From: an uncultured Alphaproteobacteria bacterium
Lineage (GTDB): Bacteria; Pseudomonadota; Alphaproteobacteria; RF32; CAG-239
Direction of reading: 5' to 3'
DNA length: 64,000 nt
Assembly (NCBI GenBank): GCA_944391405.1
Contig: CALXTN010000001.1
Span: 4,503 to 68,502 of the forward strand
A program made the translations under genes and the position numbers. Below the pieces are notes generated by a model. The model did not search any database, was not told the origin of the DNA, and saw only the letters and a list, made by a program, of their open reading frames with translations. Positions 3,340-44,962 of the stretch are shown piece after piece (the first letter of the stretch is position 1; every line of letters begins with the position of its first letter).

Positions 3340-4332
3340 TTAAGGGAGTGGCACCATCTTTAAAATATTGGAAATGATATCATCACTTTTTAATCCTTCC
3401 GCCTGTGCTTCAAAACTCAATATAATACGATGTCTTAGAACATCATACACGACATCATGAATATCTTCAGGAATAACAAAATCACGTCCTTTTAGCCATG
3501 CATTTATTTTTGCACATTTATCTAATGCTATTGTAGCGCGAGGACTAGCCCCGTAAAGTATCTTCTCTTTTAACGAACTATCATATTTTTCTGGATGTCT
3601 GGTGGCCATTATTAATTGTACCAAATAATTCTCCAAATTATCATTCATATAAACGGAGAGTACGTTTTTTCTTGCATTCAACACATCTTCTATTTTAATC
3701 TTTCCAACATTACCAAAAAATTCTTTTTCGGCTGTCTGATCCTCATGTTTTCCTTGTTGTTCTGCTCGTACTAGTCTTAATATTTTGTGTTCTGTTTCTG
3801 CATCTGGTTGATCAATCTTTATATACATTAAAAAGCGGTCTAGCTGTGCTTCAGGCAAATTATATGTTCCCTCTTGTTCAATTGGGTTTTGAGTTGCCAA
3901 AACCATGAACAATGGCGGTAACACGTATTGTTTCCCTCCTACACTCACTTGACGCTCCGCCATAGCCTCCAGCAAAGCAGATTGAACCTTTGCCGGAGCA
4001 CGGTTAATTTCATCAGCCAGCACTAAATTAGCAAAAACAGGGCCTTTGCGAAATTCAAATTCGCCTTTTTCTGCCACATAAATATCACTTCCCGTTATAT
4101 CCGACGGGAGCAAATCCGGTGTAAATTGAATACGGTTGTAATGTGCTTGTATACAATCCGCCAAAGTTTTTATAGCTTTTGTCTTAGCCAACCCTGGAGC
4201 ACCCTCTAATAAGGCATGACCATCTGCTAACAGCGTGATTATAAGTTTTTTCACTAATTCCTGTTGCCCAACAATTCTATTATCCAGATAATTTTGTAAA
4301 GCGACGATTTTCTCCCTAATTTCGCTCATCAT
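3340..4332 (-). CDS. MoxR-family AAA+ ATPase
   Basis: Walker A LLEGAPGLAKTKAIKTLA, Walker B LVLADEINRAPAKVQSALLEAMAERQV, and a MoxR-like length of 330 aa. Confidence 0.88.
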   Translation of the reverse strand: MMSEIREKIVALQNYLDNRIVGQQELVKKLIITLLADGHALLEGAPGLAKTKAIKTLADCIQAHYNRIQFTPDLLPSDITGSDIYVAEKGEFEFRKGPVFANLVLADEINRAPAKVQSALLEAMAERQVSVGGKQYVLPPLFMVLATQNPIEQEGTYNLPEAQLDRFLMYIKIDQPDAETEHKILRLVRAEQQGKHEDQTAEKEFFGNVGKIKIEDVLNARKNVLSVYMNDNLENYLVQLIMATRHPEKYDSSLKEKILYGASPRATIALDKCAKINAWLKGRDFVIPEDIHDVVYDVLRHRIILSFEAQAEGLKSDDIISNILKMVPLP

Positions 4333-4446
4333 ACCCTCTCTGTTTTATTTCTGTTCTAAAAAACCATAAAAAACTTTTAATTCAAAATTTATCTTGTATA
4401 ACTCTATATATGATTTTGATTAACAAAAAACAAGAAATTTTACAAG

Positions 4447-6852
4447 ATGAGTAACATTTTTGATTTTGATGAGAGTGATGATAGTTCCGCACCTATTACC
4501 TATGATAATATTAGTGCGCTTAAACCGACTTGTCCATTTCTGGACAATTTAAATCCCGAGCAATCACAAGCTGTACAAAAAACAGAAGGGCCTTTGTTGG
4601 TTTTGGCTGGAGCCGGAACAGGTAAAACGAAAGTATTAACAACACGCTTAGCCTATATCTTGCAAAACAATTTTGCACACCCTTGGAACTGTTTAGTGGT
4701 TACCTTTACAAATCGCGCTGCTAATGAAATGAAAGAACGTGTCAGAAGTTTTATCGGAGATGCAGTTAATTCTGTTTGGCTAGGTACATTCCACAGTATT
4801 TGCGTTAAAATATTAAGAAAATATCCAGAACTCGCTGGCCTGAAGGCAAATTTTACTATTTTAGGTGAAGATGATCAAAAACGTGTTATTAAAAAAGTAT
4901 TACAAGAAAACTCTATTGATGAAAAACAGTATCCACCGCAATCTATTCTAGAAAAAATATCTCGTTTTAAAGATAAAGGTTACACTATTGAAAAAATTGC
5001 GAACGACTGCAAAAATAATATAACAGTATTCATTTATAAAGAATATCAGAAAAAACTTATTGAAATGAACTGTGTCGATTTTGGAGATATTCTTTTGTAT
5101 GTTCTGGATATGTTATTAAAAAATCCGACTATTTTACAAGAGTATCAGCAACGTTTCAAATATATTATGGTCGATGAGTATCAAGATACAAACGTTACTC
5201 AGTATTTATTATTGCGCCTACTTTCTCAACTTCATAGAAATATTTGTTGCGTTGGAGATGACGATCAATCTATTTATTCTTGGCGTGGCGCAGAAATTGA
5301 AAATATTTTAAAATTCACAGAAGATTTTCCAGAGGCTACAACTATTCGACTGGAACGAAACTATCGGTCAATTGCTAATATTCTTAACGCGGCGTCCGCC
5401 GTTATTAGCCATAACACAAAGCGCTTAGGAAAGACCTTAAAAGTTGCGGAACATAGTCCTGTTTCTGATTGTTCTAATGAAAAAATTAAAGTTGTCAGCA
5501 CATACAGCGGAGACGATGAGGCAAAATATATCACGCAAGAAATTCAACGCTTAAAATATAAAGGAATCGCTTATGATGAAATGGCGGTTTTAGTTAGAAC
5601 AGCATCTCAAACACGTGCCTTTGAAGAAAGCTTTATTAAAGAATCTCTCCCATATAAAGTCGTCGGAGGTTTAAAATTCTATGAGCGTGCTGAAATTAGA
5701 GATTTATTGGCTTATTTTCGTCTTGTTCTGCAACCTAGTGACGATTTAGCCTTTGAGCGCATCATCAATAAACCTGCTCGTGGTATTGGTGAAAAGACTG
5801 TCGATAAATTCCGCGAAAGAGCAAAAACGCACGAGTGCTCCTTATATCAAGCAATGATTGACTTAATGGGCGAAGGTTCTTTTTCAGGAAAAACATTACA
5901 CGCTCTTGATGCTTTCGTAACGCATGTTAATGAGTGGCGCCGTATATTACCAGCTGTTTCATTAAGTGATTTTGCCGAACAAATTGCTGATGAATCAGGA
6001 TATTTTACCATGCTTGAACAAGATAAATCTGTTGAAGCTGCGGGAAGAATTGAAAACATTAAAGAGCTCATTAACGTTATGAGCGATAATGAAAATTACC
6101 CTAACCTCTCTGAATTTTTAGAGCATGTTAGCCTAGTTATTGATAATGAATATGGCGACAATTCCAATAAAATTATTATTTCTACCTTGCACGCAGCAAA
6201 AGGACTCGAATTTGATGCCGTATTTTTACCTGGATGGGAAGAAGGTATTTTTCCTCATCAAAAATGTCTTGATGGAGATGATGGAGGCATTGAGGAAGAA
6301 CGCCGTTTGGCCTATGTTGCTATTACGCGTGCAAAAAAACTTTTATATATAACTATGGCCTTTAATCGTAAATTATATGGACAATGGCAGAGCAATCTTC
6401 CATCTCGGTTCTTAAACGAATTACCACCAACTTGTATTGATCTTATCAATAATACAGGGTATGGTGCCGTATCTAAGACCAAACTCGCTTCCGATAGTTC
6501 ATATTCTTACGCAAAATCCTCTTATAACAGCAACAAATATTCGGACAGTTATCGTTCATCTTATTCAGACAATTATTCATCTTCTTATTCTAAAAAAGAG
6601 AAGCATGGTTTCTTTGATAGTTATGAAAGCGCTGCTTATGATGAATGTGACGATGATAATTCATACAAGACAAAGTATAAAAACGATTATTTTTATCAAA
6701 CTAAAAAGGTTTCGCCTTTGGTGGGCAAGAAAGTACGCCACACTACTTTTGGTAATGGAAAAATTGTTGATGTTGACGGAAACAAATGCGAAGTATTTTT
6801 TGATAATTTCGGTAAAAAGAAAATTATGAAAAGCTTTTTGGAAATACTTTAA
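4447..6852 (+). CDS. uvrD: UvrD/PcrA/Rep-family SF1 DNA helicase with Ser/Tyr-rich linker and C-terminal Tudor-like domain
   Basis: Motifs AGAGTGKT, VDEYQDTN, YSWRGA, LERNYRS, TLHAAKGLEF and AYVAITRAK. The C-terminal segment is VGKKVRHTTFGNGKIVDV. Confidence 0.88.
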   Translation: MSNIFDFDESDDSSAPITYDNISALKPTCPFLDNLNPEQSQAVQKTEGPLLVLAGAGTGKTKVLTTRLAYILQNNFAHPWNCLVVTFTNRAANEMKERVRSFIGDAVNSVWLGTFHSICVKILRKYPELAGLKANFTILGEDDQKRVIKKVLQENSIDEKQYPPQSILEKISRFKDKGYTIEKIANDCKNNITVFIYKEYQKKLIEMNCVDFGDILLYVLDMLLKNPTILQEYQQRFKYIMVDEYQDTNVTQYLLLRLLSQLHRNICCVGDDDQSIYSWRGAEIENILKFTEDFPEATTIRLERNYRSIANILNAASAVISHNTKRLGKTLKVAEHSPVSDCSNEKIKVVSTYSGDDEAKYITQEIQRLKYKGIAYDEMAVLVRTASQTRAFEESFIKESLPYKVVGGLKFYERAEIRDLLAYFRLVLQPSDDLAFERIINKPARGIGEKTVDKFRERAKTHECSLYQAMIDLMGEGSFSGKTLHALDAFVTHVNEWRRILPAVSLSDFAEQIADESGYFTMLEQDKSVEAAGRIENIKELINVMSDNENYPNLSEFLEHVSLVIDNEYGDNSNKIIISTLHAAKGLEFDAVFLPGWEEGIFPHQKCLDGDDGGIEEERRLAYVAITRAKKLLYITMAFNRKLYGQWQSNLPSRFLNELPPTCIDLINNTGYGAVSKTKLASDSSYSYAKSSYNSNKYSDSYRSSYSDNYSSSYSKKEKHGFFDSYESAAYDECDDDNSYKTKYKNDYFYQTKKVSPLVGKKVRHTTFGNGKIVDVDGNKCEVFFDNFGKKKIMKSFLEIL

Positions 6853-39290: not shown

Positions 39291-41822
39291 ATGTTTAATT
39301 TAGGAGATTGTGTATTGAAAAAAGCTAAATTACAAATTAACGATGAAGCAAGAAAAGCTAGACTTAAATTGTCTATTGAACATTACATTAAATATTTCAT
39401 CGGTAAAAGAGCTTGTGAAGTTACAAAAGAGGAGGCTCTTTATGCTATTTCCTTGGCTGTGAGAGAATTTGCCATGGATGAAATGTATAAAACAATGGCT
39501 AAATATAACGAAAACTCAGCTAAAAGAGTTTATTATTTGTCTATTGAATACTTAATTGGACGCTCCTTGGAAAATAACCTACATAACCTTGGTTTATATG
39601 ATTTATTAAAAGATATTAAAATTGAGGGTTTTCCAGATATTTCTTTAGAGGAAATTTTTGATACAGAATACGATCCTGCTTTGGGAAATGGTGGTTTGGG
39701 ACGTTTAGCTGCTTGCTATTTGGACTCTATGGCTTCTTTGGGATTACCTGGATTTGGTTATGGTATTAATTATCAATTCGGCTTATTTAAACAGAAATTT
39801 GAAAATGGATGGCAAGTTGAACAAGCTGATGATTGGTTCTCAGACTTCTCTCCGTGGGAGTTAGCCAGACCAGACAGATTAGTCACTATTCCTATGTTTG
39901 GAAATGTTGAAACCTATAAAGATGCCAATGGTAAAGATACCTATGTCTGGGCAAATACGCAAACTCTTTATGGCGTTCCTTACGATTTCCCTGTGGTTGG
40001 TTACGATGGAAAATCTGTAAATTACCTACGTTTGTTCTCCGCTAAAACAGATGATGAATTTGATATCGATATTTTTAATAACGGTGGATATATTGAAGCA
40101 GTTGAAGATAAAATTAAAACAGAAGCTATTTCTAAAGTTCTTTATCCTTCAGATGCTATCGAATCCGGTAAAGCTCTTCGTTTATCTCAACAATATTTCT
40201 TCGTTTCTTGTGCTATTCAGGATATTTTTAGAAGATTTTTAGAAAAAAGTAATGACTTTGAAAAATTGCCTGACTCTGTTTGTATTCAATTAAATGATAC
40301 GCATCCAGCTTTAGCTATCGTTGAAATGATGCGTTTACTCATAGATATTTATGGGCAAGATTGGGATACTTCTTGGAATATAGTTACTAAGGTATTTGCT
40401 TATACAAACCATACATTATTGCCTGAAGCTTTGGAAACATGGCCTGTTAAATATTTTAAGCATATGTTGCCTAGACATTTGCAAATTATTTATGAAATTA
40501 ATCGTCGATTTATTGAATTCGCTAAAACTAAATTTGGTGCTACAAGTGAAAAATTAGCTAAAGTTTCTATTGTATCTGGTGATGGCGATACACAAATTAT
40601 TCGTATGGCAAATTTGTCTATTGTTGGTTCATTCTCTGTTAATGGCGTGGCTAAAATTCACTCTGAACTGATTAAGACCTCTCTCGTGCCTGAATTTTAT
40701 GAATTGTGGCCAGAGAAATTTACCAATATCACAAATGGTATTACCCCAAGACGTTGGTTATTGCACGCGAATACAAATTTATCTAACTTGATTTCTGAGA
40801 AAATTGGTAAAGATTGGATTTCTAACCTAGATTTATTAAACCAAGTTGCTAATTTTGTTGATGATGATGATTTTCTTAAGCGTTTTATCAAAATTAAAAA
40901 AGCCAACAAAGAACTGTTACGCCATGAGATTTTTAAGAAAACGAATGTTGCTGTTACAACAAACAGTATGTTTGTGGTTCAAGCTAAGCGTATCCACGAA
41001 TATAAACGTCAACTTATGGCGATTCTGCAAGTTATTGGCGATTATTTGGCCATCGTTCGCGACAATGTTCGTCCGGTTTGCCCAAAAACTTATATCTTTG
41101 CAGGTAAAGCAGCTCCGTCATATACTTTTGCTAAATTAATCATTAAATTGATTAACAATGTTGCAAATGTGGTCAATAATGACCCCAAAGTCGGCGACGC
41201 GCTTAAAGTGGTATTTGTTCCGGATTATAAAGTTTCTTTGGCAGAAATTCTTATTCCAGCAGCTGATGTTAGCTTGCAAATTTCCACCGCTGGTTTTGAA
41301 GCTTCCGGTACGGGTAATATGAAATTTGCCTTAAACGGTGCTTTGACTGTTGGTACATATGATGGTGCTAATATTGAAATTCGTGAAGCGGTGGGTGAAG
41401 ACAATTTCTTCCTCTTTGGTTTGCGTGAAAATGAAATTCAAGAAATGCGTCCAACTTATAATCCGCGCAAGATTTATGAAGAGTCGGAATATATTAAGCG
41501 CATTTTGAATACATTAACATCTAATCTGTTTTGTGAAAAAGATGCACCGTCTTTGTTTAAGCCAATTTTTGATGAATTGCTTAACCGTGACTACTTCTTT
41601 GTTTTGGCTGATTTGGAAGCCTTTGATAAAGCCATGAAAGATGCTGAAAAAGCATATCTTAACAAAGAGGAATGGGCTAAAAAAGCTATTTATAATGTAG
41701 CAAGAGTTGGTTATTTCTCCAGCGACCGTGCGGTTAAAGAATATGCCGAAAAGATTTGGCACGTTCAAAGCTATGATTCGGATGATGACTATATGTCTGA
41801 AGATGAAGCTAAATCTGCTTAA
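39291..41822 (+). CDS. glgP: Glycogen/maltodextrin phosphorylase (GT35)
   Basis: LGNGGLGRLAACYLDS...EASGTGNMKFALNGALTVGTYDGANIEI (PLP lysine motif). An alternative TTG start at 39315 has a GGAG SD. Confidence 0.93.
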   Translation: MFNLGDCVLKKAKLQINDEARKARLKLSIEHYIKYFIGKRACEVTKEEALYAISLAVREFAMDEMYKTMAKYNENSAKRVYYLSIEYLIGRSLENNLHNLGLYDLLKDIKIEGFPDISLEEIFDTEYDPALGNGGLGRLAACYLDSMASLGLPGFGYGINYQFGLFKQKFENGWQVEQADDWFSDFSPWELARPDRLVTIPMFGNVETYKDANGKDTYVWANTQTLYGVPYDFPVVGYDGKSVNYLRLFSAKTDDEFDIDIFNNGGYIEAVEDKIKTEAISKVLYPSDAIESGKALRLSQQYFFVSCAIQDIFRRFLEKSNDFEKLPDSVCIQLNDTHPALAIVEMMRLLIDIYGQDWDTSWNIVTKVFAYTNHTLLPEALETWPVKYFKHMLPRHLQIIYEINRRFIEFAKTKFGATSEKLAKVSIVSGDGDTQIIRMANLSIVGSFSVNGVAKIHSELIKTSLVPEFYELWPEKFTNITNGITPRRWLLHANTNLSNLISEKIGKDWISNLDLLNQVANFVDDDDFLKRFIKIKKANKELLRHEIFKKTNVAVTTNSMFVVQAKRIHEYKRQLMAILQVIGDYLAIVRDNVRPVCPKTYIFAGKAAPSYTFAKLIIKLINNVANVVNNDPKVGDALKVVFVPDYKVSLAEILIPAADVSLQISTAGFEASGTGNMKFALNGALTVGTYDGANIEIREAVGEDNFFLFGLRENEIQEMRPTYNPRKIYEESEYIKRILNTLTSNLFCEKDAPSLFKPIFDELLNRDYFFVLADLEAFDKAMKDAEKAYLNKEEWAKKAIYNVARVGYFSSDRAVKEYAEKIWHVQSYDSDDDYMSEDEAKSA

Positions 41823-41840
41823 ATTTTCTTACTAAAGATT

Positions 41841-41875
41841 AAGCCCGAAGCACAAAACTTCGGGCTTTTTGTTTA
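41841..41875 (+). terminator. Intrinsic terminator after glgP
   Basis: AAGCCCGAAG-cacaaaa-CTTCGGGCTT followed by TTTGTTTATTTT. Confidence 0.88.
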
Positions 41876-41926
41876 TTTTCAATAGATTATCGCTATTGCG
41901 ACTCGAAACAGCGAATCGACAACAGC

Positions 41927-41955
41927 TTGACGTATGGCAAAAAATGTGGTATATT
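41927..41955 (+). promoter_or_regulatory. Near-consensus sigma-70 promoter with extended -10
   Basis: TTGACG (41927-41932), a 17-nt spacer ending in TGG, then TATATT (41950-41955). It sits about 300 nt upstream of the lipoprotein ATG. Confidence 0.6.
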
Positions 41956-42264
41956 ATAGCTGTAAAGTGAATTATTCTGTTTTCTAAGTTTTATTTTTAT
42001 TATTGTAAAAATCTCTTAGTGCGGCGTAGTTCACTTAATAAAATTGAATATTAACAGACGCATTTGGAAGTACCGGACCAGCAGCTGATAGAAATTTTTT
42101 GATTGAAAAGGCATTATTACGACAACAGCCTACCGCAAGCGAATAATAGTAACTTAGGTTAACCAATTGAAATTGAGTATTGAAGCGCCCCCAATAGCCA
42201 AATGCTATTTTAAGATAACGCGTGAGTAGACAGGTGGAAACATCTTGAGGAGCGCGTGTGACGT

Positions 42265-43149
42265 ATGAAGAAAAACTTATTCTTCGTAGTCGTTGTGTTA
42301 TTAAGTGTAATGATGTTTTATTCTTGTGCCGGTGAAGAACTGGTGCAAATTGTCGAAGAAACTTCTGAAAAATATCAGGAGCCAGCACAGGTTCCTGAAT
42401 ATTGGGAGTGGTCTTACAGCCACTCTGAGTTAGTTAAAAATGAAACAACGCTGGTTGACGGCGTTGTGGATTTCGAGATTGAGATTAAAGACGTGTACAC
42501 AGCGGTGTATGCAGGGGAAAAGGTGTATAAAGACACCACCCGCGTCTACAATTTTTCAACTATTCAGAGCGCTGAGTGGAGATCTGTAAACCTTGCGTTT
42601 AGCAAGGGATACAAGGCATATCAGACTGAGTTCACGAACCATAACAACATGGTTCGCAACCTCTATGCAGAAAGAGACTCCACTTTCTGTGAAGAAGGTG
42701 GATGGACAGTAGTCCGTGAAGAAAAGGCAGCCCACTTCAATTACGTTTCTTCAACATGCGAGGAGGATGGGTTCGATCCTGTTGCTTCTTGCAACAACTT
42801 CGCCGGTTTCTTTACCGACGAAAAGTTGGGTGAAATCCAATTGAAGCCGGTGGTGATTACAATCTATCCGAGAGGATACGAAAGTAAGCACCACAAAGAC
42901 GAAACTTACCGTTACGACGGTGAGTCAGGTCTTTGGATTGACCGTCCGTGGGAAACATCAGAGGATAAGCAGAGCTCTCGCTCTGCCGTTGAAAACGGGA
43001 AAGAGTATATGAGATATCCTATTATCATTTCAGCAGAATTTTCTTGCGAAGACTTCGGTCTGAGCGAAAAATTCGTTGCTGAGTATGATTATTGGATCCT
43101 CTTCAATCGTGAAGAGGCTATCGCAGAAGGCTCAGCTATTCCGTTCTAA
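42265..43149 (+). CDS. Orphan lipoprotein, Bacteroidota-style signal/lipobox, higher-GC foreign-looking gene
   Basis: MKKNLFFVVVVLLSVMMFYSC|AGEE: a lipobox Cys followed by acidic residues. GAGGAG SD. Three internal C-E-[ED] motifs (FCEEGGW, TCEEDGF, SCEDFGL). Hand-counted 60-mers are 40-48% GC. Confidence 0.7.
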   Translation: MKKNLFFVVVVLLSVMMFYSCAGEELVQIVEETSEKYQEPAQVPEYWEWSYSHSELVKNETTLVDGVVDFEIEIKDVYTAVYAGEKVYKDTTRVYNFSTIQSAEWRSVNLAFSKGYKAYQTEFTNHNNMVRNLYAERDSTFCEEGGWTVVREEKAAHFNYVSSTCEEDGFDPVASCNNFAGFFTDEKLGEIQLKPVVITIYPRGYESKHHKDETYRYDGESGLWIDRPWETSEDKQSSRSAVENGKEYMRYPIIISAEFSCEDFGLSEKFVAEYDYWILFNREEAIAEGSAIPF

Positions 43150-43174
43150 GCACAGCGGTGCTGCACTAAGATAA

Positions 43175-43206
43175 GGGTCCCAAGCATTTGCTTGGAACCC
43201 TTTTTT
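43175..43206 (+). terminator. Intrinsic terminator after the lipoprotein gene
   Basis: GGGTCCCAAGC-attt-GCTTGGAACCC (10 of 11 bp paired) followed by TTTTTT. Confidence 0.85.
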
Positions 43207-43260
43207 ATGCTCTATTGGGCTTTTTATCAGCTTTTTATCCGCGAATCTTTTTAATTTATT

Positions 43261-44172
43261 CTAGCGATAATCCCACTCTTCTTTGGCTCGTCTGTTTCGT
43301 GCTTCTATGGATAAAGTTCTACCTTTATATTTTTGGGGCTTTTCCGTAAACTCTTTAACGCGCTCCATCGCTTTTGCATAACGATTTTCTTCATATTCCG
43401 CTTTTTTAGAAATATCTTCATATCGTTTGGTCTGCTCCGCATTATTTGCATCTCTGCTCAATGCGGCGGCGGTTATGCGTATGGCATAATTAAAATCTTT
43501 TTTTAGCTTAAACTTAGCACTGCGATTGTACTTTTCAGCTGGCAAGCAATCCACTATGTTTAAACAGTTTTCATACAACGACAATTTCTCCGCACAACCT
43601 TTTATTTTTCTAAGTTCCTCGTTGTTCATTACTTCTTTGAAAAAATACATTGCATCTTTTTCATAATCTTTAGACGCCTTTTGATTTTTACGACGCAAGC
43701 GTTCATATCCTTTTTTCATATCCCGAATGCGCAATGCTTGACGATTATATTCTTCCAATATAATTCTATCATGATATTCTGGCAGATGGCGCTTACAATT
43801 GTATTCTAATGCGTTTAGAATATACTTATTTTCAGGGTATATATGGGGGCGAAAATATTCGACTCCGTGTAACAAATTTCGGTAATGATACTCACTCAAA
43901 TTTTGCGTATTATTGGCATATGAATCTATAGATTGTCGATATTCCTCCAAACTGTCACAAAAATCTACTGCTTTGGCCGTTTCTATATATAACAGCGAAT
44001 CGTCTGTCCAAATGCTTAATTGTCCATCTGCACTACGACGATGAGCAACCTTACTTTGATATATGGAAATCTCTGTGTTTACTGAACTGTTTTCGTGATT
44101 TGTGCAACGTGAAACGGCTCGGTTTATTATCCGATACAATTCTTGTATTTGAACATTTTCCGCCATGATCAC
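43261..44172 (-). CDS. Hypothetical, predicted all-helical Lys/Glu/Tyr-rich protein (about 301-303 aa)
   Basis: Long uninterrupted ORF. It starts at GTG 44172 or ATG 44166 and has its own candidate promoter. No family recognised. Confidence 0.6.
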   Translation of the reverse strand: MIMAENVQIQELYRIINRAVSRCTNHENSSVNTEISIYQSKVAHRRSADGQLSIWTDDSLLYIETAKAVDFCDSLEEYRQSIDSYANNTQNLSEYHYRNLLHGVEYFRPHIYPENKYILNALEYNCKRHLPEYHDRIILEEYNRQALRIRDMKKGYERLRRKNQKASKDYEKDAMYFFKEVMNNEELRKIKGCAEKLSLYENCLNIVDCLPAEKYNRSAKFKLKKDFNYAIRITAAALSRDANNAEQTKRYEDISKKAEYEENRYAKAMERVKEFTEKPQKYKGRTLSIEARNRRAKEEWDYR

Positions 44173-44874: not shown

Positions 44875-44962
44875 GGAGTGTTGGCAGAGCGGTAATGCAG
44901 CGGATTGCTAATCCGTCATCCCGAATAAGGATGCACAGGTTCGAGTCCTGTACACTCCGCCA
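44875..44962 (+). tRNA. tRNA-Ser (anticodon GCU), type II with long variable arm, CCA encoded
   Basis: Acceptor stem GGAGTGT/ACACTCC, discriminator G and CCA. Anticodon loop TTGCTAA, long variable arm CATCCCGAATAAGGATG, and T-arm GGTTCGAGTCC. Confidence 0.93.

Follow-up and report, generated by a model that had tools for sequence, protein, structure and literature searches.

What does an untranslated leader of about 300 nucleotides (nt) do in front of an orphan lipoprotein gene, and how did such a unit come to lie between two genes of a small genome? This question is raised by a self-contained transcription unit of promoter, leader, open reading frame (ORF) and terminator at positions 41927-43206 of a 64,000-nt stretch of DNA (the window; contig CALXTN010000001.1) from an uncultured alphaproteobacterium whose draft genome comprises 1.72 Mb in 68 contigs and has a GC content of 36%. 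We refer to the unit as the cassette, to its source genome as G000 and to the genus of that genome as g1. A first-pass annotation of the window had noticed the cassette downstream of glgP and had suggested that its long leader could be either a cis-regulatory RNA or an independent non-coding RNA (ncRNA). The first of these suggestions is now strongly supported by a co-varying RNA structure and by the position of this structure in front of four different ORF families. The leader represents a previously undescribed, strongly structured RNA family that is restricted to one alphaproteobacterial family, is present in one copy per genome and precedes four unrelated orphan genes.

A conserved RNA fold in the leader

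Over its whole length between promoter and ATG, the leader is better conserved than the ORF in every comparison. Its core was folded by RNAalifold on the basis of 11 sequences into eight helices with a total of 40 base pairs (Table 1). In the alignment A7 (n = 11), 97.7% of the cells are paired and 20 of the 40 pairs show compensatory exchanges; none of 500 shuffled alignments reached the observed covariation, and structures slid along the alignment paired in only 28-47% of the cells. Two larger alignments, in which the pair counts are inflated towards the structure since both were fitted to the model, gave 94.9% paired cells and 32/40 compensatory pairs (A8, n = 16; again no shuffle out of 500 reached the covariation), and 93.2% paired cells and 33/40 compensatory pairs (A9, n = 22), with a covariation of 0.784 vs 0.230 in the shuffles. 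Across all three alignments the slid controls stayed at or below 50% paired.

The long-range helix P1 illustrates this behavior: the pair GCAUUUGG/CCAAAUGC co-varies to GCAACUGA/UCAGUUGC, to GCAUAAAG/CUUUAUGC and to GCUUAAGG/CCUUAAGC. The last hairpin of the core, P5, consists of an outer stem (ACGCGUG/GCGCGU) and an inner stem (AGGUG/CAUCU) separated by an internal loop (AGUAGAC/UUGAGG(A)). The GAAA tetraloop at its tip (42237-42240) is invariant, and the pair that closes this tetraloop can be G-C, C-G or U-G. Invariant nucleotides are also present in single-stranded segments, namely AAG...GG after P1 and CC.A.AG before the return strand of P1. Variation in length is accommodated as well; in two loci (L049 and L052), an additional hairpin is inserted behind P4.

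The 11-nt receptor for GAAA tetraloops, 5'-UAUGG/CCUAAG-3', is a module of large folded RNAs. The most conserved internal loop of the core, which in g1 reads UAC(N)GG / CC(U)AAUAG, resembles it when inspected by eye; the other genera differ at this position and read CCCGAGAG.

The two leader hairpins singled out by the first-pass annotation do not belong to the conserved structure. Instead of the proposed AATAGC/GCTATT pairing, CCAAATGC (42198-42205) pairs over a long range with GCATTTGG (42060-42067) to form P1, and CGAATAAT, the proposed partner of ATTATTaCG, is the loop of the P4 hairpin. The GAGGAG motif that had been taken as the Shine-Dalgarno (SD) sequence is indeed present (42247-42252), and it is located 12 nt upstream of the ATG, inside the conserved P5 hairpin.

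The earlier failure to assign the leader to a known riboswitch class proved well founded. A scan of positions 41500-43600 against the 4227 models of Rfam 15 at E<=10 yielded no match to the leader and only terminator-driven noise outside of it; leader variants from four other genomes gave no Rfam match on the motif at E<=1, and a limited full-text search of the literature retrieved nothing relevant. At a separate locus (L095 1020-1084, plus strand), the fluoride riboswitch aptamer model scored 24 bits, below its gathering threshold of 34; this weak match falls within a 2-hydroxyacyl-CoA-dehydratase-like ORF or close to its end and is probably due to chance. CsrA-type GGA sites in the leader were considered and rejected because the GGA in the loop is absent from the other genera. 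The leader contains no intrinsic terminator, and it contains no leader peptide or conserved upstream ORF, as stop codons fill all three of its reading frames.

Upstream of the core, transcription would start near position 41962, downstream of the near-perfect extended -10 promoter predicted by the annotation, which is conserved across all lipoprotein cassettes. A hairpin at the position of P0 is present in all cassette classes, and its sequence differs from class to class. The terminators that the annotation had placed on both sides of the unit were likewise found (Table 1).

Table 1. Coordinates of the cassette elements within the window
Feature	Position	Strand	Remark
glgP intrinsic terminator	41841..41867	+	left border of the cassette
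Sigma-70-type promoter TTGACG-17-TGgTATATT, extended -10	41927..41955	+	score 10/12
P0, AU-rich 5'-proximal hairpin (AAGUGAAUUA.../...UAGUUCACUU)	41965..42036	+	
5' arm CUCUUAGUGCGGC	42012..42026	+	long-range pairing with the beginning of the 3' untranslated region
Structured RNA core	42058..42261	+	matched by models R1 and R2
P1	42060-67/42198-205	+	helix of the core
P2	GG 42075-76/CC 42190-91	+	helix of the core
P3	42099-105/42164-170	+	helix of the core
P4 hairpin, conserved loop CGAAnnAnAGUA	42132-42159	+	
P5 hairpin	42218..42257	+	end 7 nt upstream of the ATG
Orphan lipoprotein gene, 294 amino acids	42265..43149	+	
3' arm GUGCUGCACUAAGA	43157..43172	+	complement of 42012-42026
Cassette terminator AAGGGUCCCAAGC-AUUU-GCUUGGAACCCUU, then T run	43173..43206	+	

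Four unrelated gene classes downstream of one RNA

A first covariance model of the core (R1) detected a single copy in the source genome and further copies in two other genera of the same family. A model rebuilt from 16 sequences (R2) was run on all 282 genomes of the family and identified the motif in 24 of them, representing 6 of the 23 genera, and always as a single copy. Neither model found the motif in a sample of 400 genomes of the class, three of which belong to this family; the order adds only one further genome, and a search at its level essentially repeats the family search because the order consists of little else than this one family. The motif was also missing from the phage, plasmid and IMG/VR collections. 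Searches that covered more than 40 genomes used strict filters, so that weak copies may be missed, and the E-values of the models built here are to be taken as rough.

At each of the 16 loci inspected, a start codon follows on the sense strand 3-5 nt past the end of the model, and the distance from the end of P5 to the start codon is 7-9 nt across loci. The ORFs that begin at these start codons fall into four unrelated families. Class 1, the lipoprotein of about 294 amino acids (aa), occurs in a subclade of g1, the cassette subclade. Class 2, an FHA-domain protein of about 110 aa, is found in genus g324. Class 3, a protein of about 240 aa with a YYWGTNPW motif, is present in genera g18, g19 and g326 and, in addition, in genome G048 of g1, where it occupies another locus beside a tRNA gene. 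Class 4 is a 390-aa protein of genus g311. G048 is one of two genomes of the cassette clade in which the usual cassette site is empty, yet it carries exactly one copy of the RNA. The proteins of about 240 and 390 aa had no match in Pfam, PHROGs, PADLOC or NCBIfam, and the FHA domain was the only match of the protein of about 110 aa; for the class-3 protein, only 6 cluster matches were recovered among 5.8 billion proteins.

The four classes share the architecture of their transcription units. Every unit has a promoter of the type TTGACAAAA...TGnTATAAT about 45-100 nt upstream of the core and closes with a strong terminator of its own, which follows the stop codon at a distance of no more than about 40 nt, and most of the downstream ORFs are richer in GC than both of their flanks (GC 0.42-0.53; GC at third codon positions, GC3, 0.38-0.58).

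Could the RNA itself, rather than the protein, be the product of these units? The 300-nt RNA would then act in trans, as a scaffold or as a decoy, and the ORF would be a passenger expressed by read-through. The single copy per genome and the patchy distribution are compatible with this idea, as is the observation that the RNA is better conserved than the ORF and stays in place while unrelated genes replace the ORF across lineages. However, there is no terminator or U-tract after P5, and an independent RNA gene has no reason to keep a fixed spacing to the start codons of four ORF classes. We therefore regard an independent ncRNA gene as improbable. Since a structured RNA is present in single copy before four unrelated orphan genes, the leader is most likely a new gene-control element.

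We consider it probable that this element is a cis-acting control of translation. With its 3' half, P5 spans the region from -20 to -7, including the SD-like purines, and would thereby occlude the ribosome-binding site (RBS); P5 is probably held in place by docking of its GAAA loop onto the receptor-like internal loop between P1 and P2, and some ligand, protein or RNA signal might shift the equilibrium between the occluded and the accessible state. In several respects such an arrangement resembles the translational riboswitches and the orphan candidates known from the surveys of the Breaker laboratory and from the Cis-reg entries of Rfam: a long 5' untranslated region (UTR), a multi-helix junction with few invariant nucleotides, co-varying helices, insertions of variable length (here in L049 and L052), a last helix over the ribosome-binding region just before the start codon, and non-homologous genes downstream. 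It differs from them in that no Rfam match exists, in its restriction to one family and to a single copy per genome, in that no ligand or alternative fold has been identified, and in that orphan genes (a lipoprotein, a small FHA protein and two others) take the place of metabolic or transport genes. Within a cis-acting control, a small-molecule riboswitch is no more likely than a leader that responds to a protein or to another RNA.

The same promoters and downstream genes can be read in terms of a constitutive expression module, in which the leader senses nothing and serves as a stabilizing, translation-enhancing 5' UTR that provides very high expression to any accessory ORF; its 5' hairpin would protect against RNase E and RppH, its AU-rich stretches would be a platform for S1, and its fold would be compact. 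Near-consensus extended -10 promoters are indeed found in all classes, a 5'-proximal hairpin and AU-rich stretches are present, and the downstream genes are unrelated and share no common pathway. Nevertheless, a 200-nt core of eight helices with invariant junction nucleotides and a strictly kept GAAA loop far exceeds the known stabilizer leaders, and the pairing of the RBS region by P5 would hinder initiation rather than enhance it. This leads us to view the constitutive module as unlikely.

Pairing with the 3' untranslated region and the proposed mode of control

In the lipoprotein class, the leader is connected to the opposite end of the transcript. Positions 42012-42026 are complementary to positions 43157-43172, just past the stop codon, and a duplex of 9-12 base pairs (bp) is kept in all 11 distinct cassettes. 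Its two strands change in a coordinated fashion: UUAGUGC/GCACUAA in some cassettes corresponds to UUGAUGC/GCAUCAA in others, and GCAGUUU/AAACUGC and GCGGUU/AACCGU are further versions. In the hand-made alignment of the duplex (A10), covariation amounts to 0.305 vs 0.203 in the shuffles, none of 500 of which reached the observed value, and slid controls pair in 25-48% of the cells. Folding predicts a partner for the 5' arm within the leader as well (columns 45-47/75-77); the change from UUAG to UUGA is uncompensated in this intra-leader partner, and the 3' UTR therefore emerges as the real one. The 3' arm begins 8-11 nt past the stop codon in G000 and 0-5 nt past it in the other cassettes, and the core of the terminator that follows (CCAAGC...GCUUGG) is kept across cassettes whose ORFs share only 31-55% aa identity. 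Hence, the leader of the lipoprotein class co-varies with its 3' UTR across 1.1 kb. The other three classes have no such duplex.

Complementary segments at the two ends of a gene also bring to mind an invertible DNA switch. The inverted repeats of 12 nt at 42014-42025 and 43160-43171 would allow the core and the ORF to be flipped relative to a fixed promoter, and this would result in phase variation of the lipoprotein. The repeats do lie downstream of the promoter and bracket precisely the core and the ORF; they show both conservation and covariation, and the product is a hypervariable predicted surface lipoprotein. On the other hand, a single orientation is found in all assemblies, no recombinase is encoded within several kb, and the mismatches in the core of the duplex are without exception G.U on the sense strand and never A.C, as is appropriate for pairing of RNA and not for DNA repeats. 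DNA inversion at this site is thus very improbable.

An RNA duplex of this kind has parallels in the pairing of the 5' and 3' UTRs of icaR from Staphylococcus aureus and in the small RNAs derived from 3' UTRs in enterobacteria; the likeness lies in a short conserved element between stop codon and terminator that is complementary to the 5' UTR of its own transcript, and a 3' UTR that is better conserved than the ORF is a further likeness. In the cassette, however, the target is a segment of P0 and not the SD sequence, the duplex is confined to the lipoprotein class, and it is known here from sequence. Translational control by the leader could accordingly possess a second layer in this class, either through pairing between the ends of the mRNA or through an RNA derived from the 3' UTR that acts on its own leader. 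Such pairing may couple mRNA stability, or a feedback, to the control of translation.

Several points weigh against a cis-acting translational control element, in addition to the inflated pair counts in A8 and A9 and the manual construction of A10. The transcription start site, co-transcription of leader and ORF and any processing of the transcript are deduced from the DNA sequence. Neither a ligand nor a regulator nor an alternative (ON/OFF) fold was identified, and no alternative pairing is conserved across genera. The downstream genes, being orphans, give no hint as to function. For classical metabolite riboswitches, the controlled genes usually form coherent metabolic or transport sets, and the phylogenetic distribution is usually broader. 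The SD-like purines, finally, lie at a variable distance from the ATG, with 12 nt in G000, so that occlusion of the RBS is to be taken as plausible.

A more far-reaching version of a sensing leader can be envisioned, although we regard it only as tentative and rather doubtful. The motif would be a new class of sensing RNA, either a riboswitch or a leader responsive to a protein or an RNA, that serves as a one-per-genome 'expression socket'. Accessory genes that are GC-rich, fast-evolving and unrelated would be swapped into this socket, with recombination taking place in the conserved sequences at its two ends, the 5' leader and the 3' UTR; for the lipoprotein version, pairing of the UTRs would loop the mRNA.

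Descent, base composition and product of the lipoprotein cassette

The first-pass annotation had interpreted the cassette as a recent horizontal acquisition, with a Bacteroidota-style lipoprotein, or else as an assembly chimera. Wherever the flanking DNA suffices, the gene order is the same: tolC in reverse orientation, glgP, the leader with the lipoprotein gene, then a 303-aa gene and a TerB-like gene, both in reverse orientation, and further on fba. This order recurs in human-gut metagenome contigs from unrelated studies, and at least 17 independent assemblies, which stem from different studies, have the cassette in the interval from glgP to the 303-aa gene. All homologues examined in their genetic context (10 genomes of the genus and further contigs) reside at this glgP locus in this alphaproteobacterial group. 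In a first sample, the lipoprotein was found in 8/25 genomes of the genus and in none of 16 genomes outside of it; the leader is present in 11 of 36 genomes of the genus and the 303-aa neighbor in 31 of 36.

In cassette-free genomes, a gap of only 48-140 nt with a single bidirectional terminator separates glgP from the convergent 303-aa gene. A tree of the 303-aa protein, used here in place of a species tree, positions the 11 cassette genomes within one clade of 13 genomes (support 99/95), two members of which are empty. Because cassette genomes make up 11 of the 13 members of one supported clade, the tree implies one old gain and two losses, and otherwise vertical inheritance. The cassette was inserted once, into the intergenic terminator between glgP and the 303-aa gene, in the ancestor of the subclade. 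A perfect 11-nt inverted repeat (41885-95/43262-72) flanks the cassette; it is not conserved in the relatives and is therefore attributed to chance.

A recent acquisition is contradicted by the related genomes, which carry both gene and leader at this very locus, and the recurrence of the cassette there in independent metagenome assemblies speaks against a chimera. Recent transfer or misassembly does have points in its favor: GC and GC3 are atypical in a pattern unlike that of highly expressed genes, the acidic residues after the lipobox superficially resemble the Bacteroidota export signal, and relatives with an empty site exist. But the cassette is confined to the supported clade, its ORFs have diverged to 31% identity between syntenic flanks, exhaustive profile searches found no homologue in an outside context, and the phage and plasmid collections gave no match. 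Both recent transfer, possibly from Bacteroidota, and chimerism are thus extremely improbable.

Phage morons provide another comparison, as they too are self-contained transcription units of higher GC content that are inserted precisely between genes adjacent in relatives. The cassette differs in that it lies outside of any prophage (its surroundings are glgP, tolC, fba and infC) and has no match to PHROGs or to the phage, plasmid and IMG/VR collections, and in its large conserved structured leader, a feature that morons are not known to possess.

The higher GC content of the cassette, noted by the first-pass annotation, was borne out by measurement. In sliding windows, GC is 0.43-0.46 at 42300-43200, vs 0.30-0.39 in glgP and 0.33-0.37 downstream. 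The lipoprotein ORF has a GC of 0.440 and a GC3 of 0.473; it ranks 27th in GC3 among 1241 long ORFs (97.7th percentile) and lies 2.5 standard deviations above the genome mean (0.294, standard deviation 0.072). As to the codons behind this shift, the annotation was right about CTG (0.23) and GTG (0.31), while GGC and ACC, which it had also listed, are not shifted; the strongest changes also concern TTC (0.72, genome 0.18), AAC (0.69), GAC (0.64), CAG (0.71) and AAG (0.53), and CAC is among the main contributors. Codon bias linked to high expression was rejected as an explanation: housekeeping genes that are normally expressed at a high level (those for GAPDH, AtpD, Eno, DnaK and EF-G, and fba) have GC3 values of 0.21-0.30 and avoid codons ending in G. 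In the lipoprotein ORF, by contrast, codons ending in C and codons ending in G are both enriched. All lipoprotein homologues keep the deviant GC content (0.42-0.45) despite their deep divergence. Because the compositional oddity is genuine and is not an expression-linked codon bias, an ultimately foreign or otherwise distinct origin of the cassette is still plausible. A local GC anomaly can evidently outlast long vertical descent and is, on its own, a poor sign of recent transfer.

The ORFs of G000 with the highest GC3 are not housekeeping genes. With values of 0.55-0.62 (C34:11748-13826, C7:54496-56145), they include a GH108 lysozyme with PG_binding_3 and an RNase H, and several lack a Pfam family, one of them with 548 aa and 54% GC; these ORFs may be prophage or foreign islands. 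Separately, rpoC (C17:27444-31664) has a GC3 of 0.485 (98th percentile), and the adjacent rpoB (C17:23236-27420) one of 0.364.

The 294-aa product has the features that the annotation had described, the sequence VMMFYSC followed by AGEE and three C-E-[ED] motifs. SPase II substrates carry a lipobox of the form [LVI..][ASTVI..][GAS]-C. By this rule, the protein is a predicted lipoprotein, with a basic n-region, a hydrophobic h-region and a lipobox (MKKNLFFVVVVLLSVMMFYS-C); the full signal reads MKKNLFFVVVVLLSVMMFYSC and is followed by AGEE. The relatives carry FSSC, FSAC or LSAC at the lipobox. Cys21 of the lipobox is the only Cys residue that is invariant throughout the family, and the internal ones are not conserved. 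The acidic residues at +4 and +5 (C-A-G-E-E) are nearly invariant and in this resemble the surface-lipoprotein export signal of Bacteroidota; the cassette differs in its alphaproteobacterial host and in that no homologue was recognized outside this group among 5.8e9 and 1.84e9 proteins, and the proposed link to Bacteroidota consequently finds no support. Acidic tethers after the lipobox are common elsewhere.

An AlphaFold2 (AF2) model of the protein (predicted local distance difference test, pLDDT, 79.6; predicted TM score, pTM, 0.72) consists of a disordered acidic tether (residues 22-45) and an all-beta body. It has no structural neighbor in the PDB or BFVD as searched with Foldseek (best TM about 0.15), and its sequence could be assigned to no family of Pfam, NCBIfam, PHROGs or PADLOC. 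Profile searches recovered 68 matches among the 5.8e9 proteins and 14 representatives among the 1.84e9, all of them unnamed and without a Pfam domain. Within the cassette clade, identity of the lipoprotein drops to 31% aa between syntenic flanks. Even for the genome G023, the leader retains 93% nt identity and the 303-aa neighbor 87% aa identity, while the ORF is at 64% nt and the lipoprotein at 56% aa identity; because such close genomes hold very different alleles, the ORF is hypervariable between conserved flanks. The product is probably a variable outer-membrane or surface lipoprotein. In L049, a metagenomic relative, a second lipoprotein paralogue of 277 aa (3813-4646) directly follows glgP and has no detected copy of the leader; after it come about 1.35 kb of mostly non-coding DNA (4647-6000), which hold the leader of the 294-aa copy.

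The surroundings of the cassette are variable in their own right. At the empty site of G043 (L069), an insert of about 611 nt with GC-rich hairpins at its edges separates the stop codons of glgP and the 303-aa gene; an opposite-strand ORF within this insert resembles an IS200/IS605-type (Y1 transposase-like) element. Because G043 carries this insert, the glgP/303-aa spacer appears to be a hot spot for insertions. The 303-aa gene (43261-44172, minus strand) likewise matches no family of Pfam, NCBIfam, PHROGs or PADLOC and evolves fast, its product being 30-88% identical across the genus where glgP stays at 80-90%; this gene, the TerB-like gene and tRNA-Ser(gct) (44875-44962) make up a variable islet. 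In G048, the class-3 cassette (L139 616-688) directly adjoins a tRNA gene, and in G000 the distance from the cassette to tRNA-Ser is 1.7 kb; cassettes may favor variable regions close to tRNA genes. Between the cassette terminator and the 303-aa stop codon, positions 43219-43240 form a tandem 11-nt direct repeat (GCTTTTTATCA / GCTTTTTATCC), the complement of which has a partial match (76%) to the leader at 42074-42094 that is probably due to chance.

Collectively, these data add a structured RNA family with good support, about 200-300 nt in length and outside of Rfam, from gut alphaproteobacteria of an order that is uncultured and has hardly been studied. It is unusual for a leader to be present in single copy and to be coupled to four unrelated orphan genes that share a deviant GC content, a strong promoter and a terminator of their own. 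Should the leader sense a signal, it would constitute a new class of riboswitch-like RNAs; should it be a portable platform for expression, it would illustrate how small genomes accommodate accessory genes.

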